A stretch of DNA of 15,366 nucleotides, taken from NCBI RefSeq assembly GCF_003334315.1, contig NZ_QOWR01000075.1, one strand, 5' to 3'. The notes beneath the pieces were generated by a model that did no database searches, was not told where the DNA came from, and saw only the letters and a list, made by a program, of their open reading frames with translations. The position numbers and the translations under genes are program-made. Of this stretch, positions 1 to 15,366 are shown piece after piece. Within the stretch, counting starts at the first letter, position 1, and each line of letters opens with the position of its first letter. The DNA is from Escherichia coli (GTDB lineage Bacteria; Pseudomonadota; Gammaproteobacteria; Enterobacterales; Enterobacteriaceae).

Positions 1-105
1 ATTATATCGAATGTGATTACAATCGGTGGCGGCGGCACAGTTGGTGTGGCGGCCTCAGTCCGGAACAATTTGAAAACAAGAACCTCGCTTAGGCCTGTGT
101 CCATA

Positions 106-483
106 TTACGTGGGTAGGATCAGATCAGGAACAGCTTTAACAGTAGCTTCTTGTTGTGTCTTGGCTTCTTGTCTAGCTTCTTCTTGTGGAATATCTACCA
201 CTTGATAGACATTAGAACTTCCTGGTCGTGCATCTTTTATAATTAACCCCATTTCGAGCAATTTCTTAACCCTTTCCTCTGCTGCTCTTGGTGTTATGCC
301 AAAAACATCGCCTATCTTAGCGTAAGAGGGAAATGCACGATCAAACCCTTTCAGATAGCAGTAAAGATTTTTAGCACTATCTGTAAATTTATGCCCGTTT
401 ACTTGGCTTATTTTTAGAATCCACATAGGAACTTTTACAAATTGTTCTTCATTAATCATTAAAAATCTCCTTGATGTAATCAC
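106..483 (-). CDS. HTH_36-like winged-helix DNA-binding protein, 125 aa (putative replication-initiator-like or regulatory protein of the element)
   Basis: ORF MITSRRFLMINEEQFVKVPMWILK...; the central segment SAKNLYCYLKGFDRAFPSYAKIGDVFGITPRAAEERVKKLLEMGLI has the pattern I associate with the HTH_36 family found in phage/plasmid Rep-like proteins. Strong RBS: the minus strand reads AAGGAGA about 7 nt before the ATG. Last gene of a tightly packed three-gene operon. Confidence 0.55.
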   Translation of the reverse strand: MITSRRFLMINEEQFVKVPMWILKISQVNGHKFTDSAKNLYCYLKGFDRAFPSYAKIGDVFGITPRAAEERVKKLLEMGLIIKDARPGSSNVYQVVDIPQEEARQEAKTQQEATVKAVPDLILPT

Positions 484-512
484 GCTCTATGGCGCTACTA
501 TGGTGATAAAAA

Positions 513-683
513 TCACTTGCTTTTATTTGAGAGTGTTTCAGCCTCTCTTTTCAACATATCAAGAATGTAATCTGTGACAGTGATACGTCTACTTCTGGCT
601 TCTTTAAATAACACCTGAAATACTTCATCAGGAATATGAAAGCAAGTGCGTGGTTGTCTTTTCTTTTCTGTAGTTTCGCTCAT
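513..683 (-). CDS. Small ribbon-helix-helix-like (CopG/Arc-type) protein, 56 aa; absent from the supplied ORF track (below length cutoff)
   Basis: Hand translation of the minus strand: MSETTEKKRQPRTCFHIPDEVFQVLFKEARSRRITVTDYILDMLKREAETLSNKSK, stop TGA (complement at 513-515). The pattern basic N-terminus, beta-strand (TCFHIPDEV), helix (FQVLFKEARSRR), helix (ITVTDYILDMLK) is RHH-like. Strong RBS AAGGAG 6 nt upstream; 19-nt gap to the upstream gene and 29-nt gap to the downstream gene. Confidence 0.35.
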   Translation of the reverse strand: MSETTEKKRQPRTCFHIPDEVFQVLFKEARSRRITVTDYILDMLKREAETLSNKSK

Positions 684-702
684 AGTTTTCTCCTTCTATT
701 CT

Positions 703-891
703 TTACTCTGTTTCAGATTCTTTTTCATTTTTTCTTAATTCATCAATAATCTTGAGTGCTTCATTGAAGCAAGCTGCTCGCTCTGGATAACCTCGACTCC
801 TTGCCATATTACGATTCATTACTATTTGGTGGCGTGTAAGCTCACCTTTTTTAAATGCCGCGACAACGTGTTCCGATGTGAACCATTTCAT
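703..891 (-). CDS. Hypothetical small protein, 62 aa; first gene of the three-gene operon
   Basis: ORF MKWFTSEHVVAAFKKGELTRHQIVMNRNMARSRGYPERAACFNEALKIIDELRKNEKESETE with a strong RBS (minus strand TAAGGAGTTTTTT then ATG). I do not recognise a family. Confidence 0.4.
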   Translation of the reverse strand: MKWFTSEHVVAAFKKGELTRHQIVMNRNMARSRGYPERAACFNEALKIIDELRKNEKESETE

Positions 892-1122
892 AAAAAACTC
901 CTTATTCAGTTAAAAGAAAAACACCTTGCAAGCCTGACGGCTTCAAAGTGCATTGATTTTGATTATTTAGAGAAGAATGTTTTTCTGTCCCTCTAATACC
1001 TATTATTACATATAAAGAAACATTTGTCAATACCTTTTCACAAAAAATCTGATCTTTTTCATGTACTTACATTTTTTCTTAGCAATTCGTGCTCTTCTGT
1101 GTAGTGCTATTCTTCCTTATTG

Positions 1123-1145
1123 TCTAAAACGCTCTAAAACGCGTT
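1123..1145. repeat. Tandem 10-bp direct repeat tctaaaacgc x2 running into the palindrome AACGCGTT
   Basis: Seen directly: tctaaaacgc at 1123-1132 and 1133-1142, followed by a degenerate third unit (gttctaacga). Lies in the non-coding region upstream of the minus-strand operon. Confidence 0.4.
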
Positions 1146-1461
1146 CTAACGAGGTTTTGATAAAAGCAATACATTCCCTTATGTAATGGCTGTTTAGCTC
1201 GCCAGAGGCTTATTTAAGGGGCTTATTTTGTATTTGTTAGGTATATGAAAAGGTGATGGTAGATATAAGATAGAGAGTCACTTTATAAAACGCTCTGTAA
1301 AGCCCTGTAGTGAGTTTATATATGTAGGCAATGCGTTTCCATTCCCTACCCTGCTTAATGCTGTTAGAGAAGCATTTAGACCCCTTATTTTTAATTACCT
1401 AAAGTATCCTCTATACATTCCTGTTATGAAACACCTCTGAATCCTTCATAAAACACATTAT

Positions 1462-1517
1462 GACGCAAAGAACACTTTTCTAAGGTGATTCCCTTCCTGA
1501 ATGCTGTTTCTTGCGTC
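1462..1517. repeat. Imperfect inverted repeat, 13-nt arms (gacgcaaagaaca ... tgtttcttgcgtc), 30-nt spacer
   Basis: Seen directly; 11 of 13 positions are complementary. Possible operator or RNA hairpin. Confidence 0.4.
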
Positions 1518-1560
1518 AAAGAGCTACACAGAGCTTATAAAGCTATTATTAATAATAAAG

Positions 1561-1620
1561 TAGACAAAGTAAGTAAGATAAGTAAGTAAGATAACTAAGA
1601 TAGATAAGATTAATAAGATC
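1561..1620. repeat. Degenerate AT-rich short tandem repeat (aagtaag / ataagat units)
   Basis: Seen directly: aagtaagataagtaagtaagataactaagatagataagattaataagatc. Confidence 0.6.
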
Positions 1621-1630
1621 AGAATTCTCT

Positions 1631-1660
1631 TTCGGTGTCGCCTCTGGCTTTTCCACCGAA
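1631..1660. other. Hairpin-forming inverted repeat ttcggtg-N16-caccgaa
   Basis: Seen directly: 7-bp perfect arms with a T-rich loop (tcgcctctggcttttc), located just before the first 42-bp direct repeat. Confidence 0.35.
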
Positions 1661-1663
1661 AAC

Positions 1664-1828
1664 AATTACACAACTACAGAGAATAACGAGAGTTATTAAA
1701 TGTAGAAAGTGGAATTGTATTGAGGCTTAGTGAAATTACACGAGGAAAGCAGAGTGTAATTGAGCTTTAGCCGCTCTCTCTTCGAGTAATTACACAACTA
1801 CAGAGAATAACAGAGTTATTAAATGTAG
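1664..1828. repeat. Pair of 41/42-bp direct repeats (aattacacaactacagagaataac(g)agagttattaaatgtag) about 124 bp apart
   Basis: Seen directly: copy 1 at 1664-1705, copy 2 at 1788-1828, differing by a single g indel. Each contains the short palindrome aataac...gttatt and is followed by similar sequence (gaaagtggaatt / gagggtaatt). Confidence 0.7.
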
Positions 1829-1917
1829 GAGGGTAATTAAGAGTTAGAGAGAGTTAACACATAAGCAATCAGTATGATTGGTTAGGTGATTACTCTTCTG
1901 CGCACAGCGCAATAGTA

Positions 1918-1960
1918 TTTCTTCGTGGGCGTTACCGCCAACGATAGTTACACGAAGAAA
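1918..1960. other. Strong stem-loop: 10-bp perfect inverted repeat tttcttcgtg / cacgaagaaa enclosing a nested ggcg-ttac-cgcc hairpin, within a locally GC-richer segment (about 1860-2075); candidate structured RNA or protein-binding site
   Basis: Seen directly. The 75-codon minus-strand ORF over this segment has no obvious RBS or protein-like composition, so I favour a structural element over a CDS. Confidence 0.4.
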
Positions 1961-2128
1961 GTAACGCTTTGCTTTCGGTGTGAGCGGAACGGGCCAGCCA
2001 CGAAGCCCAAAGGTAGCGGAGTAAGGCTGCTTGCCAGAGAGTGAAGCTAACGCCGGAAGGCAAAAGATCATATAAATAAATATATAATATTATAATTTAA
2101 TAAGTAATTTAATAAATGATCTAATAGG

Positions 2129-2262
2129 TAACAGAATTCTGTGGGGGTGTCTAACAGTTTTCTGTGGGGGTGTCTAACAGAATTCTGTTAGGGTGGGGTA
2201 ACAGAATTTTGTTAGGGTAAAAATCTCTTTAAAAGTTAAGATTAACAGAATTCTGTGGGGGG
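2129..2262. repeat. Repeat family A: palindrome (t)AACAGAATTCTGT(T) followed by G-runs (gtggggg); direct repeat ctgtgggggtgtctaacag x2
   Basis: Seen directly: copies starting near 2129, 2176, 2199 (degenerate, aattttgtt) and 2243, with a fifth at 2538. ACAGAATTCTGT is a perfect 12-bp palindrome, a likely dimeric DNA-binding-protein site. Confidence 0.7.
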
Positions 2263-2325
2263 TAGCTCACAGTGACCTACCCCCTAGTTCACTATGACCT
2301 ACCCCCCTAGGTCACAGTGACCTAT
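2263..2325. repeat. Iteron cluster 1 (family B): three roughly 21-bp units tag(c/t)tcac(a/t)(g/a)tgacctacccc; the third is the perfect palindrome AGGTCACAGTGACCT
   Basis: Seen directly: 2263-2284, 2285-2307 and 2307-2325; the palindrome is at 2309-2323. Confidence 0.7.
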
Positions 2326-2349
2326 ATAGTATAAAGAATATTATTTATA

Positions 2350-2377
2350 TTATTTAATTATAGTATTTAATTATAGT
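2350..2377. repeat. AT-rich 13-bp tandem repeat (atttaattatagt x2) in a roughly 50-bp A+T tract; candidate DNA-unwinding element
   Basis: Seen directly, lying between iteron families B and C. Iterons next to an AT-rich tract is the classical origin layout. Confidence 0.45.
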
Positions 2378-2385
2378 ATTGGTGG

Positions 2386-2483
2386 AACTCATTTCCTAGG
2401 TAGGTAGGAACTAATTTCCTAAGTAGGTAGGAAACCACTTCCTAGGTTACTTCCTAAATAGATCGGAAATCATTTCCTAGGTG
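2386..2483. repeat. Repeat family C: (a/c)tttcctagg(taggtagga) units at roughly 22-bp spacing (4-5 copies); contains the palindrome CCTAGG
   Basis: Seen directly: tttcctagg at 2392, tttcctaag at 2414, cttcctagg at 2438, cttcctaaa at 2451, tttcctagg at 2473. Confidence 0.6.
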
Positions 2484-2498
2484 TTATTTATACTTATC

Positions 2499-2535
2499 GG
2501 GTATCAGTTTTGATAGGGGTATCAGACTTGATAGG
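2499..2535. repeat. Repeat family D: gggtatcag(tt/ac)ttgatag x2 in tandem, 19-bp period
   Basis: Seen directly at 2499-2516 and 2517/2518-2535. Confidence 0.6.
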
Positions 2536-2556
2536 GGTAACAGAATTCTGTGGGGG

Positions 2557-2618
2557 TAGTTCACTATGACCTACCCCTAGTTCACTGTGAGCTACCCCTA
2601 GTTCACTGTGAGCTACCG
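2557..2618. repeat. Iteron cluster 2 (family B): three head-to-tail 21-bp units tagttcac(t)(a/g)tga(c/g)ctacc(cc)
   Basis: Seen directly: 2557-2577, 2578-2598 and 2599-2618, with exact 21-bp periodicity (two helical turns), as expected for Rep-binding iterons. Confidence 0.75.
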
Positions 2619-2712
2619 TTACATCCAATCATCTGTCGATGTAACATATCGTTACTACCAACTTTCTTACAAAGAGCATTTCAGATAGCTGAATGTAACC
2701 TCTCGTTACATC
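2617..2712. repeat. Palindrome-rich block: gttacatc-N12-gatgtaac, gtaac-atatc-gttac, and cgttacatcc repeated (2617 and 2703)
   Basis: Seen directly. Confidence 0.5.
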
Positions 2713-2729
2713 CATTTGTCACATAGCAC

Positions 2730-3210
2730 TCTGTGTAATGCCTTTCTATGTGTGTGCCATAATCCCCCTATATTCCCTGTGTAAATCATAGAATAATGCT
2801 CTCTATTCCCTGTGTAATTCCCTACTAAAAATCAATGAAAAAGTAGCTTAAAGTTGCAATTCTTACTTTCTTCACTTTTACATCACTTTCGCAAAGCCTT
2901 GTGTAATGCGGCTTACAGAGCACCATCAGAAATTGTTGGCTAAAAATTATTCTGCTTGTTTCTGAACGAGTTTTCTCGTTTGTGCAAATTTTAAAATTTA
3001 TTTTGTTTTTACAGCCTTATTTCGTGTAATGCGTGGCATAGCAAGCCCTTTTCTTGTGTTGTCAAGACATTTGGCAACGTTCAAACATCTGTTTAGAAAT
3101 GCCAAATTGTTGATCTAACAAATAAACCTGTATAAACAGAACACCATTTAATCTATTCCCCTGTGTATCCATTAGGCATACCAAATGAATACAGCTAAAT
3201 CGTGTAATAT
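2730..3210. repeat. Dispersed motif (c)tgtgtaat(g) recurring about 7 times, including the direct repeat tattccctgtgtaa x2 (2770-2818)
   Basis: Seen directly near 2733, 2779, 2811, 2901, 3026, 3161 (variant tgtgtatcc) and 3203. The region is non-coding and leads up to the recombinase gene. Confidence 0.45.
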
Positions 3211-3262
3211 TCCGTACCCATAAGGCTTGAAACAGACCAAATGAATACGGTATACTCATTTG
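3169..3262. promoter_or_regulatory. Putative res/hix-like recombinase binding region: duplicated motif cat(t/a)aggc..accaaatgaatac(a/g)g plus the palindrome caaatga-N11-tcatttg
   Basis: Seen directly: copy 1 at 3169-3194, copy 2 at 3217-3250, palindrome at 3238-3262 with the palindromic core gtatac. The location immediately 5' of a resolvase-family gene is where res sites sit in Tn3-family and plasmid resolution systems. Confidence 0.4.
3227..3256 (+). promoter_or_regulatory. Putative sigma70 promoter of the recombinase gene (-35 TTGAAA, 18-bp spacer, -10 TATACT)
   Basis: -35 at 3227-3232, -10 at 3251-3256, about 45 nt upstream of the ATG at 3302. The -10 lies inside the palindrome, which would suggest autoregulation. 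Sequence-pattern inference only. Confidence 0.35.
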
Positions 3263-3301
3263 CATTTAAGTAGTGCCAAATCGACACATTAAGAGGATTT
3301 T

Positions 3302-3841
3302 ATGAGCAATATCGGTTATAAGCGTGTGAGCACTGTAGATCAGAACACTGATCGCCAGCTTGCAGGAGTAACTCTCGATAAAGTCTTTGAAGATAAGCTG
3401 TCTGGTAAAGACACTAACCGCCCAGGCTTACAAGCGTGTTTAGCCTATCTGAGAGAAGGCGACACCTTACACGTGCACTCTCTCGACCGTTTAGGACGTA
3501 ACACCTTAGACATCCTTGCTTTAGTTGAACAACTTAATAATCGAGGTGTAATTGTTCGATTTCACAAAGAAGGAATCATTGCAGACATTACAAGCGCGAT
3601 GGGAAAGATGATGCTTACGATGTTGTCGGCAGTTGCAACGTGTGAACGTGAACTGATGTTAGAACGTAAACGAGAAGCGCAAGCCGTCAATCCTACAAAA
3701 CGTGGTAATGGAAAAGCAGTGGATCGAGAAGGTATAAAGAAAGCCCTTTCTGATGGCCTGTCAGTGCGTAAAACCGCCGAGAGCTTTAATGTTGCTCCTT
3801 CAACGGTGCAACGTATCAAGAAGGAAGAAGAGGAGGCGTAA
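3302..3841 (+). CDS. Small serine recombinase (resolvase/invertase family), 179 aa
   Basis: N-terminal GYKRVSTVDQ is the catalytic-serine motif of serine recombinases. Conserved blocks FEDKLSG, RPGL, LDRLGR and SAVATCERELMLER resemble the Tn3 TnpR, Gin and Hin layout. A C-terminal HTH is present (LSVRKTAESFNVAPSTVQRIKK). RBS AAGAGGA lies 5 nt upstream. Not identical to the Pin or Gin sequences I recall. Confidence 0.85.
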   Translation: MSNIGYKRVSTVDQNTDRQLAGVTLDKVFEDKLSGKDTNRPGLQACLAYLREGDTLHVHSLDRLGRNTLDILALVEQLNNRGVIVRFHKEGIIADITSAMGKMMLTMLSAVATCERELMLERKREAQAVNPTKRGNGKAVDREGIKKALSDGLSVRKTAESFNVAPSTVQRIKKEEEEA

Positions 3842-3850
3842 TGCCTCCTT
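3829..3850 (+). terminator. Possible hairpin at the recombinase stop (ggaggcg-taa-tgcctcc)
   Basis: 6-bp GC stem spanning the stop codon, followed by ttgatattt. Weak T-tract, so low confidence. Confidence 0.25.
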
Positions 3851-4077
3851 GATATTTGAGAATTGTCGCTGCGTGGACCTGACGGCGCTGATCTTCTCGT
3901 TAAGCGATGATCACGTATGCGCCGATTTCAGAGAAAAAGACAGTAACTGAACTCACTATGAAGGCTAAACGTATCTTTACACTTGATGAAAACGTTCAAA
4001 AAACAACCTAACCCCAAAATTCAACAAATTGCAACACATTGTTTTTAAAAGAAAATTAAATCTACATCAAATATTGG

Positions 4078-4106
4078 TTGACGTAGATTGAGGTGAATAG
4101 TAGACT
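4078..4106 (+). promoter_or_regulatory. Putative promoter for the small hydrophobic ORF (-35 TTGACG, 17-bp spacer, -10 TAGACT)
   Basis: Pattern match only; would give a leader of about 70 nt before the ATG at 4183. Confidence 0.25.
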
Positions 4107-4182
4107 ATTAGGGTAAATTACCACCCTTGTAACATCATTTAATGCATGTTCTAATCTTCCTATCGTAAAACCGGAGGAAGTT

Positions 4183-4341
4183 ATGCATTTACTTTCAAAA
4201 CATCTTCACACTATTCACTTTCTCGTTATTGATGTATTCGTTGTGGCTATTAGTTACCGCATTTGCATCGCTTCCAGTGAAGAGATGGACGCTGTTGCAA
4301 TTATTGCTCAAGCAATGGCGATATTAACTAAACGACTTTAA
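4183..4341 (+). CDS. Small hydrophobic protein, 52 aa (candidate small membrane protein or toxin-like peptide); absent from the ORF track
   Basis: Hand translation: MHLLSKHLHTIHFLVIDVFVVAISYRICIASSEEMDAVAIIAQAMAILTKRL, stop TAA at 4339-4341. Strong RBS GGAGGAAG 5-6 nt upstream. A roughly 20-residue hydrophobic stretch is consistent with one transmembrane helix. Confidence 0.35.
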   Translation: MHLLSKHLHTIHFLVIDVFVVAISYRICIASSEEMDAVAIIAQAMAILTKRL

Positions 4342-4354
4342 TAATTTCACTATC

Positions 4355-4398
4355 AGGCGCATAAACACATCTTTGATCGCTGGATGTGTTATGCGCCT
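4355..4398. terminator. Long near-perfect inverted repeat (aggcgcataaacacatc - N11 - gatgtgttatgcgcct) between the two convergent small ORFs; candidate bidirectional terminator or operator
   Basis: Seen directly: arms at 4355-4371 and 4383-4398, 16 of 17 positions paired with one bulged A. The position between convergent ORFs fits a terminator, though flanking T-tracts are weak. Confidence 0.45.
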
Positions 4399-4407
4399 AC
4401 TGGTGAT

Positions 4408-4560
4408 TCAATCCTTAAGCCATTTCAACTCACTAAGGAGTTTTCTTTCTTCGTTCTCTCGTTGCTTTCGCTCTAGCCAGGCTTTTCCCTCTGGCGTAGA
4501 CAGGAACTTACGAGCGTGAATCTTGCGGTTATTACGTTTTATAGCTGCAATGTTTTTCAT
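4408..4560 (-). CDS. Small basic protein, 50 aa, hypothetical; absent from the ORF track
   Basis: Hand translation of the minus strand: MKNIAAIKRNNRKIHARKFLSTPEGKAWLERKQRENEERKLLSELKWLKD, stop TGA (complement at 4408-4410). A possible RBS (AGAGG) lies upstream. I do not recognise a family. Confidence 0.3.
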   Translation of the reverse strand: MKNIAAIKRNNRKIHARKFLSTPEGKAWLERKQRENEERKLLSELKWLKD

Positions 4561-5166
4561 CGTGTTGCCTCTGTATTCATATGAAAATTAACAAGTTACA
4601 TACTACACAGGGAGACTACGCATAAAACACAATACAAGTAAAGATACATTTTCAAGACAATAGGAGCCATAAAGCGCCTTTGATGGTTATACCAAAAAAT
4701 AAGCGCCGTAGGCGTATCCACTAAAAAGGGCTTTTTCACAAAAGCTATGAAGTCTTAGCAGTTCTTCTCTTATCAGGCACCCGTTGTACTCCGGTGGACG
4801 AAACCGTGCTAGAGCTTGATTCTTTCCCGATCAAGTTAGGTTTTGAAGAGGTGGGCTTTAATCCACTATTGCACTTAAAACTCTTCCCATCATTTAGCCT
4901 GTTTATCCTCTGCAACGTCTCACGACGTGTAGCATCATTGGACACCGCGCCAGGTGTGGAACATCTTGCTAAGAGTTTTGGTAGAAGGTTTAGAGACGGT
5001 GGCACGTCTTCCAGCTTCAAAGGAACTTGTTACGAGGTTGAGCCTGGGAACTACTCGCCCATACGTGTTACACTACCAAAGCCCATAACAACGTATAGGC
5101 GTTTGTAAGTGATAACAGAAGATACAATTTCTTAGAGAAGTTAAGCTAAGTTATTGATTTTCTTGA

Positions 5167-5242
5167 TGGTGCCGATAATAGGAGTCGAACCTACGACCTT
5201 CGCATTACGAATGCGCTGCTCTACCAACTGAGCTATATCGGC
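5167..5242 (-). tRNA. thrW: tRNA-Thr (anticodon CGU), thrW-like
   Basis: The minus strand reads GCCGATATAGCTCAGTTGGTAGAGCAGCGCATTCGTAATGCGAAGGTCGTAGGTTCGACTCCTATTATCGGCACCA: cloverleaf features, anticodon loop TTCGTAA, encoded CCA. It sits downstream of proA as in E. coli. Confidence 0.95.
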
Positions 5243-5356
5243 CCTGAAAGGACATGTTCACGAACGTGAATCACGGTGGACAAGGTTAAAACTAACCGGG
5301 CGATGCGTCAATGGCCTTGTGAATCAAATGGCTACTTTTGCATCACCCGGTTTTAT

Positions 5357-6610
5357 TTACGCACGAATGGTGTAATCACCAATGCCGATCCACTTGTAAG
5401 TGGTCAGTGCTTCCAGCCCCATTGGGCCACGCGCGTGGAGTTTTTGTGTGCTTACCGCCACTTCCGCACCCAGACCAAACTGGCCGCCGTCGGTAAAACG
5501 CGTAGAGGCGTTAACGTAAACAGCGGACGAATCCACTTCGTTAACAAAACGCTGGGCGTTGCGCATATCGCGGGTCAGGATCGCATCGGAGTGTTGTGTG
5601 CCGTGTTCACGAATATGGGCGATGGCATCGTCAAGATCGCTGACGATTTTGACGTTCAAATCTAATGACAGAAACTCATCGTCATACTCTTCGGCTTTAA
5701 CAGCAACCACCTTCGCAGGGCCTGCCTGCAACTGCGCCAGTGCAGCTGCATCTGCGTGTAATGTCACGCCGCTTTCCGCCATTTGTTTGCTTAATGCGGG
5801 CAGGAAGCTATCGGCGATGTTTTTATTCACCAGCAACGTTTCAACCGTATTACATGTGCTCGGACGCTGAGTTTTCGCGTTGACGATCACTTTTAATGCT
5901 TCAGCGATCTCTACACTTTCATCAACGTAAATATGGCATACGCCTATACCACCTGTGATCACCGGGATTGTCGACTGTTCACGGCACAGTTTATGCAAAC
6001 CAGCGCCACCACGCGGGATCAGCATGTCGATGTATTTATCCATACGCAGCATTTCACTGACCAGCGCACGGTCAGGATTATCAATCGCCTGCACGGCACC
6101 CGCCGGTAAGCCACAGGATTTCAGGGCGTCCTGAATCACCGCCACCGTTGCCGCGTTAGTGCGACAGGTTTCTTTGCCACCACGCAGGATCACCGCATTA
6201 CCGGTTTTCAGGCACAGCGAAGCGACATCAACCGTCACGTTCGGGCGCGCTTCATAAATCACGCCAATAACCCCCAGCGGTACGCGACGACGCTCAAGAC
6301 GCAGGCCGCTGTCCAGTACGCCGCCATCGATTACCTGCCCCACCGGATCGGCGAGGTTACACACCTGGCGTACATCGTCGGCAATGCCTTTCAGCCGTGC
6401 GGGCGTCAGTGCCAGACGGTCAAGCATCGCTTCGCTAAGGCCATTGGCTCGCGCGTCAGCAACATCCTGGGCGTTAGCGTTGAGGATGATTTCGCTTTGT
6501 GCTTCCAGTTCATCGGCGATTTTTTCCAGCACGCGATTTTTTTCGCGGCTGGAGAGTTGCGCTAATTTATACGAGGCTTGCTTCGCGGCAATGCCCATTT
6601 GTTCCAGCAT
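5357..6610 (-). CDS. proA: Gamma-glutamyl phosphate reductase (glutamate-5-semialdehyde dehydrogenase), 417 aa
   Basis: Full-length [40 protein letters not shown]... recognised as E. coli ProA, immediately downstream of proB (11-nt gap). Confidence 0.97.
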
Positions 6611-6621
6611 CAGCCTGCTCC

Positions 6622-7725
6622 TTAACGGGTAATCATGTCATCACGGTGAACGGCAACCGGGCCGTATTCATATCCCAGTATTGCATCAATTTCTTGCGAG
6701 TGGTGTCCGGCAATACGGCGTAATGCATCGCTGTTGTAACGACTGACACCGTGGGCGATATCGCGACCTTCGAGGTTGCAAATGCGGATGACTTCACCAC
6801 GCGAGAAATTGCCAGTCACGCTTTTAATGCCTTTCGGCAACAGGGAGCTGCCGCGTTCAAGAATGGCGGCAGTTGCCCCTTCATCTACCGTGATTTCACC
6901 CGCCGGCGGCGCACCGAAAATCCAGCGTTTACGGTTTTCAAGCGGAGTCGCCTGGGCATGGAACAGCGTACCGACGGAAATGCCTTCCATCACATCACCA
7001 ATAACGCCCGGCTTGCTGCCCGCGGCAATAATGGTGTCGATACCCGCACGGCAAGCCACGTCAGCGGCCTGCAATTTGGTACTCATGCCGCCAGTTCCGA
7101 GGCCTGAAACGCTGTCACCGGCAATCGCGCGCAGTGCGTCATCAATGCCGTAAACATCTTTAATCAGTTCTGCCTGCGGATTGCTGCGCGGGTCAGCGGT
7201 ATACAAACCTTTTTGATCGGTCAGCAGCAACAGTTTATCGGCACCCGCAAGAATCGCCGCCAGCGCAGAAAGGTTATCGTTATCGCCGACCTTAATCTCT
7301 GCCGTAGCGACAGCATCGTTCTCATTGATTACCGGAACGATATTGTTATCGAGCAACGCTCGCAGGGTGTCGCGGGCGTTCAGGAAGCGTTCACGGTCTT
7401 CCATATCAGCACGGGTCAGCAGCATTTGCCCGACGTGAATGCCATAAATCGAAAACAGCTGTTCCCACAGTTGAATCAGTCGACTCTGCCCTACCGCCGC
7501 CAGCAATTGTTTCGAGGCGATAGTCGCTGGCAGTTCCGGGTAACCCAGGTGCTCACGTCCGGCGGCAATCGCGCCCGACGTCACAATAACAATCCGATGC
7601 CCGGCGGCATGTAACTGCGCGCACTGGCGAACAAGTTCAACGATATGGGCACGGTTCAGACGGCGCGATCCGCCTGTTAGCACACTGGTGCCGAGTTTTA
7701 CCACCAGCGTCTGGCTGTCACTCAT
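6622..7725 (-). CDS. proB: Glutamate 5-kinase, 367 aa
   Basis: The ORF track opens at 7812, but the ProB N-terminus [19 protein letters not shown] begins at the ATG whose complement is at 7723-7725. A C-terminal PUA-like region is present. Confidence 0.95.
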
Positions 7726-7913
7726 GATTCTCTGCCATTCAATTTTAGGAAAAATGATATCAAACGAACGTTTTAGCAGGACTGTCGTCGGTTGCCAACC
7801 ATCTGCGAGCAAAGCATGGCGTTTTGTTGCGCGGGATCAGCAAGCCTAGCGGCAGTTGTTTACGCTTTTATTACAGATTTAATAAATTACCACATTTTAA
7901 GAATATTATTAAT

Positions 7914-7931
7914 CTGTAATATATCTTTAAC
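7914..7931 (+). promoter_or_regulatory. Putative Pho box (PhoB site) of the phoE promoter: CTGTAAT-ATAT-CTTTAAC
   Basis: Two 7-bp direct repeats separated by 4 AT-rich bp, about 80 nt upstream of the phoE start, matching the Pho-box architecture known for Pho-regulon promoters. An inverted copy (attacagatt) occurs at about 7869-7878. Confidence 0.45.
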
Positions 7932-8012
7932 AATCTCAGGTTAAAAACTTTCCTGTTTTCAACGGGACTCTCCCGCTGAATATTCGCGCGTTAATTAAAA
8001 TCAGGAATGAAA

Positions 8013-9068
8013 ATGAAAAAGAGCACTCTGGCATTAGTGGTGATGGGCATTGTGGCATCTGCATCCGTACAGGCCGCAGAAATATATAACAAAGACAGTA
8101 ATAAACTGGATGTCTATGGCAAAGTTAAAGCCATGCATTATATGAGTGATAACGACAGTAAAGATGGCGACCAGAGTTATATCCGTTTTGGTTTTAAAGG
8201 CGAAACACAAATTAACGATCAACTGACTGGTTATGGTCGTTGGGAAGCAGAGTTTGCCGGTAATAAAGCAGAGAGTGATACTGCACAGCAAAAAACGCGT
8301 CTCGCTTTTGCCGGGTTGAAATATAAAGATTTGGGTTCTTTCGATTATGGTCGTAACCTGGGCGCGTTGTATGACGTGGAAGCCTGGACCGATATGTTCC
8401 CGGAATTTGGTGGCGACTCCTCGGCGCAGACCGACAACTTTATGACCAAACGCGCCAGCGGTCTGGCGACGTATCGGAACACCGACTTCTTCGGCGTTAT
8501 CGATGGCCTGAACTTAACCCTGCAATATCAAGGGAAAAACGAAAACCGCGACGTTAAAAAGCAAAACGGCGATGGCTTCGGTACGTCATTGACATATGAC
8601 TTTGGCGGCAGCGATTTCGCCATTAGTGGGGCCTATACCAACTCAGATCGCACCAACGAGCAGAACCTGCAAAGCCGTGGCACAGGCAAGCGTGCAGAAG
8701 CATGGGCAACAGGTCTGAAATACGATGCCAATAATATTTATCTGGCAACTTTCTATTCTGAAACACGCAAAATGACGCCAATAACTGGCGGCTTTGCCAA
8801 TAAGACACAGAACTTTGAAGCGGTCGCTCAATACCAGTTTGACTTTGGTCTGCGTCCATCGCTGGGTTATGTCTTATCGAAAGGGAAAGATATTGAAGGT
8901 ATCGGTGATGAAGATCTGGTCAATTATATCGACGTCGGTGCTACGTATTATTTCAACAAAAATATGTCAGCGTTTGTTGATTATAAAATCAACCAACTGG
9001 ATAGCGATAACAAATTGAATATTAATAATGATGATATTGTCGCGGTTGGCATGACCTATCAGTTTTAA
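8013..9068 (+). CDS. phoE: Phosphate-starvation-inducible outer membrane porin PhoE, 351 aa
   Basis: Signal peptide [21 protein letters not shown] followed by AEIYNKD...; C-terminal ...VAVGMTYQF with terminal Phe, typical of porins. I chose the ATG at 8013 rather than 8007, based on the SD AGGA at 8003-8006 and the recalled PhoE N-terminus. Confidence 0.95.
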
Positions 9069-9075
9069 TGGATAA

Positions 9076-9098
9076 TGCCGGATGTGATGCATCCGGCA
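9076..9098. terminator. GC-rich hairpin (tgccggatg-tgatg-catccggca) between convergent phoE and crl; probable bidirectional terminator
   Basis: Seen directly: 9-bp perfect stem, 5-nt loop, 8 nt after the phoE stop and 9 nt after the crl stop. Confidence 0.5.
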
Positions 9099-9106
9099 CA
9101 TTTCAC

Positions 9107-9565
<459 letters not shown>

Positions 9566-10810
9566 TTAACACAATCGTTTTTCGATCCAGTCGGTGATTT
9601 CCTGAAGACCTTTGTCAAAATTCCGATACACCGGGTTAAATGGGATCTCTAATAATTTACCGTCAGCAGATGATGAGGTGATTAAGCGTGAGTCCTCTTC
9701 CGGGCTGAACGGATCGTTCTTCCAGTAGCCTGATAACATTGGCGTTGGGCAGCGACGTCCCAGCAATCCTTGCACTTTTAATGAATAACGATTCAGCTCC
9801 ACGCGTAACGCTTCGTCGGAAGCATCATGCATCCCCAAACGACTGGCCAGAACGTCAAGATACATTTCCGGCACCTGTTGCTGGCACTTAAAATCACTCA
9901 ACAGGGTATGAACTACCGGACCAAGACAGGCAACCGCTTTCAGACGCGGCGATTCAAGGTATGCCAGACGCACGGCAACGTTAGCGCCGAAACGGAAACC
10001 AAAGGCCGCGACGCGAGTGTGATCCACCCACGGTACGTTAGGCAGCGCCTTTAAGACGTGCTGATGCAACAGGCTGGAGTCCTGGGTGAGCTTCCATTTT
10101 GAAGAAAAGCCCACCGACGGCATATCAATAGTCAGCATCGCAATGCCGCGCGGCGCAAAATAACGTTCGTACAGGCTGTAATAGTCCGTCTGCATCGCAT
10201 CCAGACCACCACACATTAATACTGTCGGGAACGGGCCATCGCCTTTCGGCATATGCAAAAAGCCGGTGATGGGCGCACCGCCGGGTACGGTAAACTCCAT
10301 CTGCCGCATCGTGCCCGGTAGACGCTGAGCGGCCTCTTCATAGGCGCGGTTTGACAAAGCCTGCGCTTGCTCGGCCAGGTCATCTCCTTTCAGATGAGGA
10401 TAGGCGGCAATGTTGTACAACGTAGCCGCATGCAGCCAGTGACGACCACTGAGTTGCGGATCTTCTTCCGCACAGGCTTTTTGTTGCCACACCATCGCCT
10501 GGGTGGCCCACTCATAAATCCAGTTGCCGCCACGGTAGCCAATCACCGTATCGTATAAATCATCGTCGGTACGTTCGGCATCGCTCATCACAATACGTGC
10601 CTGGACGTCGAGGATTTCGCGTGGGTCAATGCCGCGCCAGATCCACATCAGACGGTTAATCATGCGATACCAGTGAGGGATGGTTTTACCATCAAGGGCC
10701 GACTGCACAGGCGGTTGTGCGCCGTGATTAAAGCGGCGGACTAGCGTCGAGGTTTCAGGATGTTTAAAGCGGGGTTTGAACAGGGTTTCGCTCAGGTTTG
10801 CCTGTGTCAT
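9566..10810 (-). CDS. frsA: Fermentation/respiration switch protein FrsA (alpha/beta-hydrolase fold esterase), 414 aa
   Basis: [35 protein letters not shown]... recognised as FrsA; an alpha/beta-hydrolase nucleophile-elbow-like motif (FGFRFGAN) is present. Confidence 0.95.
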
Positions 10811-10859
10811 GGATGCAGCCTCCAGAATACTTACTGGAAACTATTGTAACCCGCCTGAA

Positions 10860-10894
10860 GTTAAAAAGAACAACGCCCGGCAGTGCCAGGCGTT
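10860..10894 (-). terminator. Putative rho-independent terminator of gpt
   Basis: Hairpin aacgcc-cggcagtgccag-gcgtt (10872-10894), followed on the minus strand by TTCTTTTTAA (complement of 10861-10870), directly downstream of the gpt stop. Confidence 0.5.
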
Positions 10895-10901
10895 GAAAAG
10901 A

Positions 10902-11360
10902 TTAGCGACCGGAGATTGGCGGGACGAATACGACGCCCATATCCCACGGCTGTTCAATCCAGGTATCTTGCGGGATATCAACAACATAGTCATCAACCAG
11001 CGGACGACCAGCCGGTTTTGCGAAGATGGTGACAAAGTGCGCTTTTGGATACATTTCACGAATCGCAACCGCAGTACCACCGGTATCCACCAGGTCATCA
11101 ATAACGATGAAGCCTTCGCCATCGCCTTCTGCGCGTTTCAGCACTTTAAGCTCGCGCTGGTTGTCGTGATCGTAGCTGGAAATACAAACGGTATCGACAT
11201 GACGAATACCCAGTTCACGCGCCAGTAACGCACCCGGTACCAGACCGCCACGGCTTACGGCAATAATGCCTTTCCATTGTTCAGAAGGCATCAGTCGGCT
11301 TGCGAGTTTACGTGCATGGATCTGCAACATGTCCCAGGTGACGATGTATTTTTCGCTCAT
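10902..11360 (-). CDS. gpt: Xanthine-guanine phosphoribosyltransferase, 152 aa
   Basis: [26 protein letters not shown]... with the PRPP-binding motif [13 protein letters not shown]; recognised as Gpt. Confidence 0.97.
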
Positions 11361-11620
11361 GTGAAGTGTCCCAGCCTGTTTATCTACGGCTTAAAAAGTG
11401 TTCGAGGGGAAAATAGGTTGCGCGAGATTATAGAGATCTGGCGCACTAAAAACCAGTATTTCACATGAGTCCGCGTCTTTTTACGCACTGCCTCTCCCTG
11501 ACGCGGGATAAAGTGGTATTCTCAAACATATCTCGCAAGCCTGTCTTGTGTTGACAACATTTTCTGCTAACCCTGTGACCTGCAATACTGTTTTGCGGGT
11601 GATCGACAAGGAGACTTAAC

Positions 11621-13078
11621 GTGTCTGAACTGTCTCAATTATCTCCACAGCCGCTGTGGGATATTTTTGCCAAAATCTGTTCTATTCCTCACCCGTCCTA
11701 TCATGAAGAGCAACTCGCTGAATACATTGTTGGTTGGGCAAAAGAGAAAGGTTTCCATGTCGAACGCGATCAGGTAGGTAATATCCTGATTCGTAAACCT
11801 GCCACCGCAGGTATGGAAAATCGTAAACCGGTCGTCTTGCAGGCCCACCTCGATATGGTGCCGCAGAAAAATAACGACACCGTGCATGACTTCACGAAAG
11901 ATCCTATCCAGCCTTATATTGATGGCGAATGGGTTAAAGCGCGCGGCACCACGCTGGGTGCAGATAACGGCATTGGTATGGCGTCTGCGCTGGCGGTTCT
12001 GGCTGACGAAAACGTGGTTCACGGCCCGCTGGAAGTGCTGCTGACCATGACCGAAGAAGCCGGTATGGACGGTGCGTTCGGCTTACAGAGCAACTGGTTG
12101 CAGGCTGATATTCTGATTAACACCGACTCCGAAGAAGAAGGTGAAATCTACATGGGTTGCGCGGGGGGTATCGACTTCACCTCCAACCTGCATTTGGATC
12201 GTGAAGCGGTTCCAGCTGGCTTTGAAACCTTCAAGTTAACCTTAAAAGGTCTAAAAGGCGGTCACTCCGGCGGTGAAATCCACGTTGGCCTGGGTAATGC
12301 CAACAAACTGCTGGTGCGCTTCCTGGCGGGTCATGCGGAAGAGCTGGACCTGCGCCTTATCGATTTCAACGGTGGCACACTGCGTAACGCCATCCCGCGT
12401 GAAGCCTTTGCGACCATTGCTGTCGCAGCTGATAAAGTCGACGCCCTGAAATCTCTGGTGAATACCTATCAGGACATCCTGAAAAACGAGCTGGCAGAGA
12501 AAGAGAAGAATCTGGCCTTGTTGCTGGACTCTGTAGCGAACGATAAAGCTGCTCTGATTGCGAAATCTCGCGATACCTTTATTCGTCTGCTGAACGCCAC
12601 CCCGAACGGTGTGATCCGCAATTCCGACGTGGCAAAAGGTGTGGTCGAAACCTCCCTGAACGTCGGTGTGGTGACCATGACTGACAATAACGTAGAAATT
12701 CACTGCCTGATCCGTTCACTGATCGACAGCGGTAAAGACTACGTGGTGAGCATGCTGGATTCGCTGGGTAAACTGGCTGGCGCGAAAACCGAAGCGAAAG
12801 GCGCATATCCTGGCTGGCAGCCGGACGCTAATTCTCCGGTGATGCATCTGGTACGTGAAACCTATCAGCGCCTGTTCAACAAGACGCCGAACATCCAGAT
12901 TATCCACGCGGGCCTGGAATGTGGTCTGTTTAAAAAACCGTATCCGGAAATGGACATGGTTTCTATCGGGCCAACTATCACCGGTCCACACTCTCCGGAT
13001 GAGCAAGTTCACATCAAAAGCGTAGGTCATTACTGGACACTGCTGACTGAACTGCTGAAAGAAATTCCGGCGAAGTAA
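11621..13078 (+). CDS. pepD: Cytosol non-specific dipeptidase (aminoacyl-histidine dipeptidase) PepD, 485 aa, GTG start
   Basis: ORF MSELSQLSPQPLWDIFAKICSIPHPSYHEE... recognised as PepD (M20 family). Start codon GTG at 11621, preceded by AAGGAGA. Divergent from gpt across a roughly 260-bp intergenic region. Confidence 0.95.
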   Translation: MSELSQLSPQPLWDIFAKICSIPHPSYHEEQLAEYIVGWAKEKGFHVERDQVGNILIRKPATAGMENRKPVVLQAHLDMVPQKNNDTVHDFTKDPIQPYIDGEWVKARGTTLGADNGIGMASALAVLADENVVHGPLEVLLTMTEEAGMDGAFGLQSNWLQADILINTDSEEEGEIYMGCAGGIDFTSNLHLDREAVPAGFETFKLTLKGLKGGHSGGEIHVGLGNANKLLVRFLAGHAEELDLRLIDFNGGTLRNAIPREAFATIAVAADKVDALKSLVNTYQDILKNELAEKEKNLALLLDSVANDKAALIAKSRDTFIRLLNATPNGVIRNSDVAKGVVETSLNVGVVTMTDNNVEIHCLIRSLIDSGKDYVVSMLDSLGKLAGAKTEAKGAYPGWQPDANSPVMHLVRETYQRLFNKTPNIQIIHAGLECGLFKKPYPEMDMVSIGPTITGPHSPDEQVHIKSVGHYWTLLTELLKEIPAK

Positions 13079-13090
13079 TTATTTGATTTG

Positions 13091-13122
13091 CTGCCGGATG
13101 GCGTTTAATCGCCTTCCGGCAG
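13091..13122. terminator. Hairpin between convergent pepD and prfH (ctgccggatggcg-tttaat-cgccttccggcag)
   Basis: Seen directly: 13-bp stem with one mismatch. Flanking T-tracts are weak, so the terminator call is tentative. Confidence 0.4.
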
Positions 13123-13134
13123 TTTCATCCTTCA

Positions 13135-13692
13135 TTATCCTTCGATAAAAGCCATCCCTGTAAATGTCCGTCGCGGGTTGCCACGTTCAATCTGGTGATG
13201 GAACATTCGCCGCTGCGATTTCAGCGCCGCGCTATTTTCCTGTTGCTGCTGCTCCAGCTTCCAGGCAATCAGCAATCGCGCCAGCCGTTTGTTAGCATGC
13301 TGGCTGCGCTCTGACTGAACCTTCACGCTAATACCGGATGCCAGATGCGTGGCGCGTACCGCCGAGTCGGTTTTATTGACATGTTGACCGCCCGGCCCCG
13401 ACGAACGCAGCGTCTCATAACGGATTGCATCCGATTGTTCCTTCTCATCAGCGGTAAAACGCCCAATGCCCAGAAACCAGTTTTTGCGCCCATGATGAGG
13501 CCGATACGGACTCGGACAAATCCACTGAATAGTGCCACACCAGCTTTCGCTTAATGCCCATGCGTTATCGCCATCCAGAGAAACCAGCGCCGAACGCAGC
13601 GTGTCAGAGTAGCGGCCCGTTTCTGTTTCCAGCACCGTTACAGCGACGTCTTGTCGGGTAAAAACGACCAACAGAGAAGAACGCTGCGCCAA
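13135..13692 (-). pseudogene. prfH: Peptide chain release factor homolog PrfH, 5'-truncated or fused remnant
   Basis: The ORF contains the release-factor GGQ motif ([20 protein letters not shown]). Its 5' end overlaps, in another frame, the end of an RtcB-like fragment, consistent with the deletion-fused rtcB'-prfH' remnant known from E. coli K-12. Whether the product is functional cannot be told from sequence alone. Confidence 0.7.
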
Positions 13693-13870
13693 TCGGGTAG
13701 CCGCGTCCGGGGTGTAAATCTGGCATCCCCACTACGCGCTGCATGTTGGGTAAATTTGCCGTGGTGTGTAATTGTTGGATCGCTAAACTCTCGATCCACA
13801 GGTCATCAGATGCGATGGTAAATACCGCATCGGATAAGGGACGAATATATTTGCCCATGTACCATTCCAT
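13604..13870 (-). pseudogene. ykfJ: RtcB-like RNA ligase N-terminal fragment (ykfJ-like remnant)
   Basis: The 88-codon [67 protein letters not shown]... resembles the RtcB N-terminal region (MPD.H.G.G..IG), then runs into out-of-frame prfH sequence at about 13655-13660. Far shorter than an intact RtcB. Confidence 0.6.
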
Positions 13871-14050
13871 TTATACTCGTCATACTTCAAGTTGCATGTA
13901 CTGCGACTCGAATTATTTAGAGTATATAAATATAAAAATCAGGAAATGGCAGACGAATCCAGGGCAAGAAAAAAAGAATTAATCCTGGAAAGGTCTGCAA
14001 AGAGTCATTGATAAAGGATTTGTCATGATTTACCTCCTTGCAGTTTGTGG

Positions 14051-14090
14051 AATAAGAAAACGCGCACATACCAGGCGGGCGTTATTTTCA
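14051..14090 (-). terminator. Weak candidate terminator downstream of yafP
   Basis: Short hairpin aacgc-N15-gcgtt (14059-14083), followed on the minus strand by TTTTCTTATT. Low confidence. Confidence 0.25.
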
Positions 14091-14103
14091 TTGCAAGCTG
14101 GAT

Positions 14104-14556
14104 TTAATATTGCGGTTTATATCGCATATAAAAATTAGTAAACCACGTTCCCCGGCATTCAACGCGCTGCTGCTTAACTGTCTGAAAACCATAACGTTCA
14201 AAAAAGGGTTTTGCGGTTATGCTGGCGTCCACCGTAAGTTCGGATTCAGACTTAATCAAAGGTTTTAACAAAGCGCAGGCAACCCCGCGGCGGGTGTATT
14301 CAGGGTCAACAAATAACATATCGATATAACGTTCAACGCAGGTAATAAAACCAACCGGTTGTGCATTAATGACGGCAACCCGCACTTGTGATTTCGCGAG
14401 TTTCTCCTTCCAGCGAGATTCGTCAATCTGCGCCCAGGCGGCAATTTGTTGTGGTGAATAATGCTGACTGGAGATCATCGTAACCGCTCTAATGAAAATA
14501 GCGCATAGTTGCTGAAAATCGCCAGGCTGATAGTCTCTTATTTGTATGTTATTCAT
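14104..14556 (-). CDS. yafP: GNAT-family N-acetyltransferase, 150 aa (YafP-like)
   Basis: ORF MNNIQIRDYQPGDFQQLCAIFIRAV... with an acetyl-CoA-binding-like segment (RRGVACALLKPL); 10 nt downstream of yafO, as in the dinB-yafN-yafO-yafP operon. Confidence 0.8.
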   Translation of the reverse strand: MNNIQIRDYQPGDFQQLCAIFIRAVTMISSQHYSPQQIAAWAQIDESRWKEKLAKSQVRVAVINAQPVGFITCVERYIDMLFVDPEYTRRGVACALLKPLIKSESELTVDASITAKPFFERYGFQTVKQQRVECRGTWFTNFYMRYKPQY

Positions 14557-14565
14557 AATATAAAT

Positions 14566-14913
14566 TCAAAAACGCATGCGAAACGCTTCTGCCATTTTCC
14601 CAATTTTATGCATTTGGTTGTTATCTCGAGCCTGTTTATGAGGTTCAGGTTTCAGAATGGCAATGAGCAACCATGCTTGCTCATCAAACGCACCCTGACA
14701 ATATACCAAATGCGCTTCGTCATTCGTTCTGCTGAATTGGCGCAACTGTGGCGGAAATGGATTATTCACATTTGCCAGATGAATATGAGCAACTCGCTCA
14801 AATTTGATTAATGGCCAGGTAAACGAGTCGTCGTAGAGTGCATCGCGACCAAATATATCTGGCAAAACACCGTCACGCTTATAGGAAATAAAATCCGCCG
14901 TTAACGCATCAAG
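14566..14913 (-). pseudogene. yafO: YafO-family toxin gene (type II toxin of YafN-YafO) interrupted by IS1; about 16 N-terminal codons lie beyond the insertion
   Basis: The reading frame continues upstream of the track ORF (...LDALTADFISYKRDGVLPDIFGRDALYDD...) right up to coordinate 14913, where the IS1 terminal repeat begins at 14914. There is no in-frame ATG in the retained part; the track ORF starts at TTG. Confidence 0.8.
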
Positions 14914-15366
14914 GGTAATGACTCCAACTTATTGATAGTGTTTTATGTTCAGATAATGCCCGATGACTTTGTCATGCAGCTCCACCGATTTTGAGAACGA
15001 CAGCGACTTCCGTCCCAGCCGTGCCAGGTGCTGCCTCAGATTCAGGTTATGCCGCTCAATTCGCTGCGTATATCGCTTGCTGATTACGTGCAGCTTTCCC
15101 TTCAGGCGGGATTCATACAGCGGCCAGCCATCCGTCATCCATATCACCACGTCAAAGGGTGACAGCAGGCTCATAAGACGCCCCAGCGTCGCCATAGTGC
15201 GTTCACCGAATACGTGCGCAACAACCGTCTTCCGGAGACTGTCATACGCGTAAAACAGCCAGCGCTGGCGCGATTTAGCCCCGACATAGCCCCACTGTTC
15301 GTCCATTTCCGCGCAGACGATGACGTCACTGCCCGGCTGTATGCGCGAGGTTACCGACTGCGGCCT
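14914..15366 (-). mobile_element. IS1 insertion sequence, partial (runs off the window end); terminal inverted repeat GGTAATGACTCCAACTTATTGAT at 14914-14936
   Basis: Sequence from 14914 recognised as the IS1 end adjoining the insB C-terminus; the encoded protein ends ...[13 protein letters not shown]. Confidence 0.95.
14929..15366 (-). CDS. insB: IS1 transposase InsB reading frame (C-terminal part; 5' end outside the window)
   Basis: Open frame to the window edge: ...[64 protein letters not shown]...HYQ, recognised as IS1 InsB. In IS1 the transposase is made as an InsAB' frameshift fusion. Confidence 0.9.

Follow-up and report, generated by a model that had tools for sequence, protein, structure and literature searches.

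A two-layered TAAGAT repeat tract in the non-coding control region of a satellite-like integrated element of Escherichia coli

The locus and its element

The window analysed here, a stretch of 15,366 nucleotides on contig NZ_QOWR01000075.1 of assembly GCF_003334315.1, is an Escherichia coli chromosomal segment carrying proA, proB, phoE, crl, frsA, gpt and pepD. The tRNA-Thr gene thrW lies at 5170-5242, and everything to the left of it is the right end of an element of ~12.6 kb integrated at this gene. The subject of this report is a short AT-rich, degenerate repeat tract within the non-coding part of that element, at 1561-1620 (tagacaaagtaagtaagataagtaagtaagataactaagatagataagattaataagatc). The tract is two-layered, its 3' part being a fixed array in which TAAGAT hexamers are phased at 9 bp and its 5' half being variable in length. 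It sits between the promoter of the rep operon and a series of exchangeable iteron cassettes, and marks the 5' edge of a conserved block of hairpins. The original prediction, made without database searches, had placed it in the control region of a mobile element, a placement borne out by its location in the 2.4-kb gene-free region of a satellite-like element.

A complete copy of the element (L001 6446-19100) encodes a tyrosine integrase, baseplate/tail-fibre-like, tape-measure-like and major-capsid-like proteins, several small proteins of unknown function, a 217-residue O-like replication initiator (Rep; PHROG 270/391, Pfam HTH_36), a ribbon-helix-helix-like (RHH) protein, a protein of 60-62 residues and a serine recombinase, in addition to the 2.4 kb without genes. 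No portal or terminase is annotated in this copy, and none was matched in PHROG among the ten proteins scanned. The window retains a leftward operon made up of the 62-residue protein (703-891), the RHH protein (513-683) and the N-terminal winged-helix part of Rep (106-483, minus strand), the last recognised from its translation and from the same PHROG and Pfam families as in the complete copy. A promoter scan assigns this operon a consensus sigma-70 promoter at 1002-1030 on the minus strand (TTGACA-17-TGtAATAAT, 11/12 matches plus TG). Rep is cut after about codon 118 by an IS3 whose end fills 1-122 and is 100% identical to the IS3 of the F plasmid; because of this interruption, the element copy in the window is probably replication-defective.

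The element occurs in 8-13% of complete E. coli genomes. A 2.3-kb query from its non-coding region matches 729 of 5426 such genomes, and the tract region matches 424-432. Copies are almost always chromosomal and lie at several positions, near 0.3, 1.1, 1.8, 3.1, 3.8 and 4.2-4.6 Mb. Some genomes carry 2-5 copies of the control region, and IS1414, IS1, ISKpn26 and IS903B are inserted in the non-coding region of several copies.

Repeat anatomy of the tract

The tract contains 32 A, 3 C, 11 G and 14 T (77% A+T), and its plus strand is 72% purine. Tandem Repeats Finder describes a single array at 1567-1619 under three periods: 13 bp (3.2 copies, 86% matches, score 63), 9 bp (6 copies, score 48) and 4 bp (7.8 copies, score 41). 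Self-identity reaches 0.75 at lag 9 and 0.70 at lag 13, values attained by none of 5000 dinucleotide-preserving shuffles of the tract alone (P<2e-4), so the repetition is not a by-product of composition; at lag 4 the corresponding value is P=0.006. The repeat finder and the shuffle test together confirm the AT-rich, degenerate short tandem repeat of the original prediction. The chromosomal part of the window (~5250-15366) holds one weak tandem array only (9536-9565, score 39), and the non-coding region of the element accounts for 14 tandem-repeat rows.

Hexamers reading TAAGAT begin at 1574, 1587, 1596, 1605 and 1614, with spacings of 13, 9, 9 and 9 bp. From 1587 onwards the plus strand can be read as four 9-mers (TAAGATNNN, 1587-1622), namely TAAGAT-AAC, TAAGAT-AGA, TAAGAT-TAA and TAAGAT-CAG, whose spacers are all unlike. 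The five departures from the column majority are all confined to the 12 spacer cells, leaving the 24 hexamer cells uniform (P=0.002). Such a hexamer-versus-spacer pattern is not the signature of recent slippage, and the identity of the hexamers while the spacers differ suggests recognition of TAAGAT itself, as opposed to mere AT-richness. Each hexamer is -10-like at T1, A2, A5 and T6. Elsewhere in the region TAAGAT is found only singly, at 1266 and 2237, with no second cluster. A scan of IMG/VR for four phased hexamers recovered arrays with unlike spacers from this element family alone; the other matches (57 of 57) were unrelated perfect 9-mer satellites with identical spacers and no common context.

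The 5' half, at 1567-1595, is built of AAGT/TAAG tetranucleotide units and a duplicated 13-mer, AAGTAAGTAAGAT. Read on the minus strand, the tract takes the form of 13-mers: GATCTTATTAATC, TTATCTATCTTAG and two copies of TTATCTTACTTAC. A 49-residue open reading frame (ORF) on that strand (1524-1673) was rejected as a gene. Homologues tolerate indels that are not multiples of three, and the tract is therefore non-coding.

Length variation among homologues

Two samples of homologues were compared: an alignment of the tract in 21 copies, and a length survey of 59 evenly spaced rows drawn from 424 E. coli copies with a 126-nt query. The alignment contains alleles of 0, +2, -4 (in two independent forms), -5, -9 and -13 bp relative to the window, and all of the indels lie within the 5' half. 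A length-neutral variant, in which AAGAAGATT replaces AAGTAAGAT, is present in about nine copies. The 3' hexamers at 1596, 1605 and 1614 are unchanged in 21 of 21 copies, and the hexamer at 1587 departs from TAAGAT in the AAGAAGATT allele and, as TAAGAC, in copy L008. The -13 allele is also carried by Escherichia sp. E1V33, again with the 3' array intact.

In the survey, 38 of the 59 copies have a length difference of 0; the others differ by +1 (one copy), -4 (five), -5 (one), -8 (one), -9 (seven) or -13 (six), and some of these span differences may include 2-bp indels in the flanks. One common length is thus shared by 64-70% of copies, and about 30-35% of the roughly 424 E. coli copies have a length other than that of the window. 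A single length was found in all 15 copies sampled from a block of 98.4% identity, which includes many O26/O111 enterohaemorrhagic E. coli (EHEC) strains. Length variation of the tract is slow. The tract is a local hotspot of indels and substitutions, lying between the almost invariant segments 1320-1560 and 1620-2070.

The original prediction had proposed that the tract might be bent or slippage-prone and had called for its length to be compared among related elements, with invariance taken as a sign of chance low-complexity sequence. Homologues in fact differ in length by amounts that correspond to the repeat units (4, 9 and 13), so the tract is not invariant, and the equality of step sizes and repeat periods points to slippage as the origin of the length alleles. 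Slippage-proneness accordingly holds for the 5' half, with its unit-sized alleles. It does not hold in the sense of a fast switch, and the 3' TAAGAT array is fixed. Bending is not predicted: runs of A do not exceed 3 bases and runs of T do not exceed 2, where intrinsically bent DNA has A-tracts of 4 or more phased at about 10-11 bp, and the periods are 4, 9 and 13 rather than ~10.5.

The surrounding control module

Comparison of the window with 26 other copies reveals a mosaic. Segments 900-2126 and 2640-3300 stay 92-96% identical across elements with Rep proteins only 36-58% identical, and 2129-2620 consists of exchangeable cassettes, each an AT-rich repeat segment plus iterons. Repeat searches, Tandem Repeats Finder and duplex stability together delimit these variable origin cassettes at 2060-2620. 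Their AT-rich segments are 2067-2127 (92% A+T) and 2320-2380 (90% A+T, with a 13-mer in three copies). Iterons of family A lie at 2129-2265 and 2538, of family B at 2259-2328 and 2553-2619, of family C at 2384-2482 and of family D at 2499-2534. The window, like several other copies, thus bears iterons of at least four families together. Five types of Rep N-terminus can be distinguished, four of which track iteron families: type 1 goes with family A (TAACAGAATTCTGTGGGGGTGTC), type 2 with family B (TAGTTCACTGTGAGCTACCCC), type 4 with families C and D, and type 5 with family E; type 3 has no assigned family. A second, shorter class of left module (L017-L022 and L098, hereafter the L017 class) lacks 1222-2071.

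Overlapping the 3' end of the tract is a degenerate type-A iteron copy, GATCAGAATTCTCTTTCGGTGTC, at 1617-1639 on the plus strand (repeat family D1, 74% to TAACAGAATTCTGTGGGGGTGTC). It holds the only GATC of the tract (1617-1620) and is kept whatever the Rep type; a pair of TAAGAT and iteron A occurs again at 2237-2265. Directly 3' of the tract is a hairpin-forming inverted repeat, TTTCGGTG(16 nt)CACCGAAA, at 1630-1661, in which L004 and L009 have a CC insertion in the loop and an intact stem. Three successive long palindromes follow, at 1664-1716, 1727-1768 and 1775-1850, all based on AATTACAC / GTGKAATT, and the fold z-score of the block 1664-1850 is -5.7 on the plus strand and -3.2 on the minus strand. 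The tract, at the 5' edge of these palindromes, is itself predicted to be unpaired on both strands. The palindrome block contains 42-nt direct repeats at 1664-1705 and 1788-1828, and in Escherichia sp. E1V33 (L113 4746-5000) a deletion has occurred between them. Copies also differ in a 19-bp palindromic indel at a hairpin tip, AGAATAACGAGAGTTATTA, which some have and others lack. In the L017 class, ATTGCAC replaces the AATTACAC-type motif, and the N-terminus of the adjacent 62-residue protein differs in step.

Upstream of the tract, a long imperfect inverted repeat (TGACGCAAAGAACA ... TGTTTCTTGCGTCA) spans 1461-1518 and hardly varies between copies; conservation bins covering 1440-1499 show 2 minor alleles in 21 sequences. 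Beyond the palindromes, 1860-2062 is GC-rich, structured and nearly invariant; neither a credible ORF nor a match in Rfam lies within it, and its role may be that of a structured RNA or of a signal in single-stranded DNA. The sole parts of it common to the divergent L017 class are the hairpin CTGCGCACAGCGCAA (core 1897-1912) and the motif GTGAGCGG; a species-wide search for distant relatives of the hairpin core gave true matches in Escherichia only, the rest being due to chance. An E-value search of 1-5400 against Rfam returned the thrW tRNA only. Reading of 1-3600 revealed no C/T-rich sequence complementary to the tract; in the L017 class, by contrast, a TTG-rich run is followed downstream by its CAA-rich complement.

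Several further motifs mark the module. Two tandem copies of TCTAAAACGC lie at 1123-1142, and a third copy, AAAACGCTCT, at 1286-1300. These copies resemble boxA (CGCTCTTA) of lambdoid nut sites, and the boxA-like stretch yields the sole DNA match in the phage database, 46 bp in Klebsiella phage KPN4. Comparison of the non-coding region with phage and plasmid collections by BLAST yielded no informative match. On the far side of the cassettes, GTGTAAT (the reverse of ATTACAC) occurs six times in one orientation at 2733-3209, upstream of both the serine recombinase gene (3302-3841) and the promoter predicted for it (3227-3256). These copies could form a res-like or regulator-binding array.

A proposed promoter or recognition role for the array

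The favoured interpretation, to which we assign a probability of roughly 0.35, is that the tract is a promoter-type or recognition array firing rightwards, with a zone of tolerated slippage upstream. The tract would act in cis as an easily melted low-complexity segment of the conserved non-coding control module (window ~900-2126), and its functional part would be the fixed, phased TAAGAT array that ends at GATC 1617-1620. This array would be a promoter-type site at which RNA polymerase enters or recognises the DNA, either by itself or together with a factor from the satellite or its helper. Rightward transcription into the hairpin block would then produce a satellite non-coding RNA, transcription towards the iteron origin, or both. 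The 5' half, with its TAAG/AAGT and 13-mer units, would serve as an upstream AT-rich zone in which replication slippage is tolerated, which would explain the length alleles.

This interpretation starts from what is observed, namely the repeat anatomy of the tract, its non-coding nature, its position, its pattern of polymorphism and the constraint on hexamers relative to spacers. Transcription from the tract, its direction and any protein partner are what we infer. In its favour, at least nine TTGAC(A)-type promoters of the putative helper phage Mt1B1_P17 (discussed below) have TAAGAT as their -10 hexamer, and a 5' hairpin immediately follows several of them; in the window, the last hexamer of the tract (1614-1619) is followed by the 1630-1661 hairpin at +11. 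The tract is predicted to be unpaired between strongly structured, nearly invariant flanks, its variation is confined to the promoter-distal 5' half, the module around it is conserved at 92-96% identity despite divergent Rep proteins, and nearest-neighbour stability ranks it as the fourth least stable 60-mer in the 15.4-kb window.

A number of observations weigh against a promoter at this site. None of the five hexamers has a -35 element or a TGn at the right distance; inspected by eye, the -35 windows match TTGACA at no more than 3/6 positions, and the promoter scan calls nothing in 1500-1700. The only downstream terminator-like site (1899-1911) is weak and within chance expectation, and the putative transcript of the tract has no Rfam match. 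At the equivalent place the L017 class carries only other low-complexity runs (TTG-rich, TAGAT-containing) and no TAAGAT array. The invariance of the 3' half may, finally, reflect recent spread of one allele, since the neighbouring 1620-2070 is equally invariant.

That last point leads to an alternative that is possible though doubtful: that the tract is a neutral low-complexity spacer with no sequence-specific role, in a module that spread recently and whose slippage indels are unselected. Such a spacer would be expected to concentrate indels and substitutions, as the tract does between its nearly invariant flanks, changes of 4, 5, 9 and 13 bp are tolerated with no helical-phase preference, and the L017-class module does entirely without the tract. 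Divergence of the module is only 1-5%, so that invariance over 30 bp is not by itself proof of constraint. Neutrality is harder to reconcile with repeats that go far beyond composition, with the confinement of all 9-mer differences to the spacers, or with the way indels avoid the 3' hexamers (1596-1619), which are invariant in the 21 aligned copies and also in L113.

The identical hexamers, fixed 9-bp phasing and free spacers would also suit an array of binding sites for a small protein, be it the 62-residue protein, a factor of the helper phage or a host nucleoid protein, in an assembly of the Cox/Xis or RHH kind. P2 Cox boxes, lambda Xis sites and omega/ParG-type RHH operators are short direct-repeat arrays bound by small regulators, and the tract shares with them identical motifs in direct orientation, a fixed spacing between less than one and one helical turn, and free spacers. 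Two small putative DNA-binding proteins are encoded beside the region, and the N-terminus of the 62-residue protein is one of the differences between the window class and the L017 class. This assignment is unlikely all the same. Neither the 9-bp phasing nor TAAGAT matches any consensus of those systems, the region has no other TAAGAT cluster, and DnaA-box and IHF consensus sequences are absent from 900-3300. The RHH protein does not co-vary with the tract: it is nearly the same in the window and in L017, which lacks the tract, and it is divergent in L001, which has it. An operator for the neighbouring RHH protein was rejected on this ground. A crossover site for the serine recombinase was likewise rejected, given that every repeat is direct and that 1.7 kb separates the tract from the gene.

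A DNA-unwinding element, or the relic of one, is less likely still. The tract would in this case mark where an additional or former origin cassette melts. AT-rich 13-mers form the DNA-unwinding regions of oriC and of iteron replicons such as RK2 oriV, and the tract resembles them in its A+T content (77-79%), its direct repeats of ~13 bp, its low duplex stability, its location in an origin-containing intergenic region and the GATC at one end, beside an initiator-type site. The adjoining iteron-A-like sequence also recalls the layout of the true cassettes, in which AT-rich repeats and iterons go together. That iteron-like site is, however, single and degenerate, and is kept with Reps of other specificity types. 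The iteron arrays start at 2129, ~500 bp from the end of the tract at 1620, and duplex stability is clearly lower at 2067-2127 (-0.905 kcal/mol per step) and at 2320-2380 (-0.916) than it is at 1543-1603 (-1.023). Because segments of 90-92% A+T abut the iterons, the tract is not the main unwinding element. It also differs from oriC and RK2 oriV in that no DnaA boxes occur in 900-3300 and the loss of a whole 13-mer is tolerated.

It is most improbable that the tract is a contingency repeat, switching expression from the control region on and off within a population by slippage: although its tetranucleotide units and unit-sized length alleles (with at least two independent -4 events) recall the contingency loci of Haemophilus and Neisseria, it has far too few units (2-3 contiguous TAAG/AAGT units and two copies of the 13-mer, where a contingency locus has a long perfect run of typically six or more), most copies have one length, near-identical copies do not differ (15/15), and the variable part lies neither inside an ORF nor between a -35 and a -10 element.

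The satellite-like element and its putative helper phage

Gene content and protein similarities suggest that the element is a PLE-like satellite parasitising lytic phapecoctaviruses. It is a small integrated element with an integrase, its own Rep and an iteron origin, and no annotated portal or terminase. Comparison of the Rep N-terminal domain led to the lytic phapecoctaviruses, and in one of these, phage Mt1B1_P17 (a lytic myovirus of 150 kb), homologues of the element proteins are found for the baseplate-like (55% identity), tape-measure-like (29-43%) and capsid-like (21.5%) products. The structural genes of the element (L001 7803-11713) correspond to 77.7-86.8 kb of that phage (L092).

Mt1B1_P17 also encodes QNJ49226.1 (L089 2501-3487), a protein of 328 residues that combines two winged-helix Rep domains with a C-terminal endonuclease domain. 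Its residues 1-105 share 99-100% identity with the type-1 Rep of L017-L022, and residues 112-210 share 85% with the type-4 Rep of L008 and L014. The C-terminus matches PHROG 681 (E=2e-18), Pfam MUG113 (E=0.0012) and, weakly, T5orf172. Phage BI-EHEC has an unannotated counterpart (L090 2501-2866). QNJ49226.1 has the architecture of Odn of phage ICP1, a nuclease directed at PLE origins, here apparently with dual specificity. Odn is a chimera, a nuclease with a DNA-binding domain that derives from RepA of the PLE satellites; it cuts PLE origins at their iterons and is thought to drive replicon swapping among PLEs, whose replicons are modular (PMC8263062). The same parallel would explain why Rep/iteron cassettes are exchangeable between constant non-coding modules in the present element. 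A literature search turned up no description of this E. coli element or of any phapecoctavirus satellite.

A k-mer comparison of the element with 150 kb of the genome of the putative helper found no shared pac/cos or regulatory stretch. The longest shared word, TTAGCAATTCGTGCT, lies outside the tract, at 1079-1093, just upstream of the rep-operon promoter, and is kept in both module classes. In Mt1B1_P17 it occurs in an early-gene intergenic region (L091 8173-8187), where CGAATTGCT repeats. Four 15-mers are shared between the element and the 150 kb of phage sequence, where ~0.7 would be expected; the match of TTAGCAATTCGTGCT may be due to chance or to a shared regulatory site.

The closest known parallel to a transcript from such a region is the small RNA SviR of the PLEs, which derives from an ORF-free intergenic region, is expressed from a helper-induced promoter flanked by inverted repeats, and is strongly conserved in every PLE (bioRxiv 10.1101/2022.04.08.487710). 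Both the tract and the SviR promoter region of the Vibrio cholerae PLE and ICP1 system belong to small satellites and are found within large intergenic regions free of ORFs. The two differ in that a transcript from the tract is putative, sequence and Rfam similarity is nil, and host, helper and Rep family are not the same. The TAAGAT array itself has no described counterpart in a PLE.

A narrower version of the promoter interpretation has a low probability. The TAAGAT array would be a helper-responsive promoter or polymerase-loading site for a conserved, hairpin-rich non-coding RNA of ~290 nt (~1625-1915), in a satellite that parasitises lytic phapecoctaviruses. By copying the favoured -10 hexamer of its helper, the array would let the satellite fire when the phage reprogrammes transcription, and the slippage-prone upstream half would tune its strength.

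The tract is in sum a minor feature, probably promoter-like, and its surroundings are more interesting than the tract. It matters little in itself, as an AT-rich mobile-element repeat with modest evolutionary length variation. It is of use as a landmark, since it forms the boundary between a variable upstream zone and almost invariant hairpins in a constant 1.2-kb non-coding module. If the array does turn out to be a helper-responsive promoter, it would offer an entry point to how a widespread E. coli element senses its phage.

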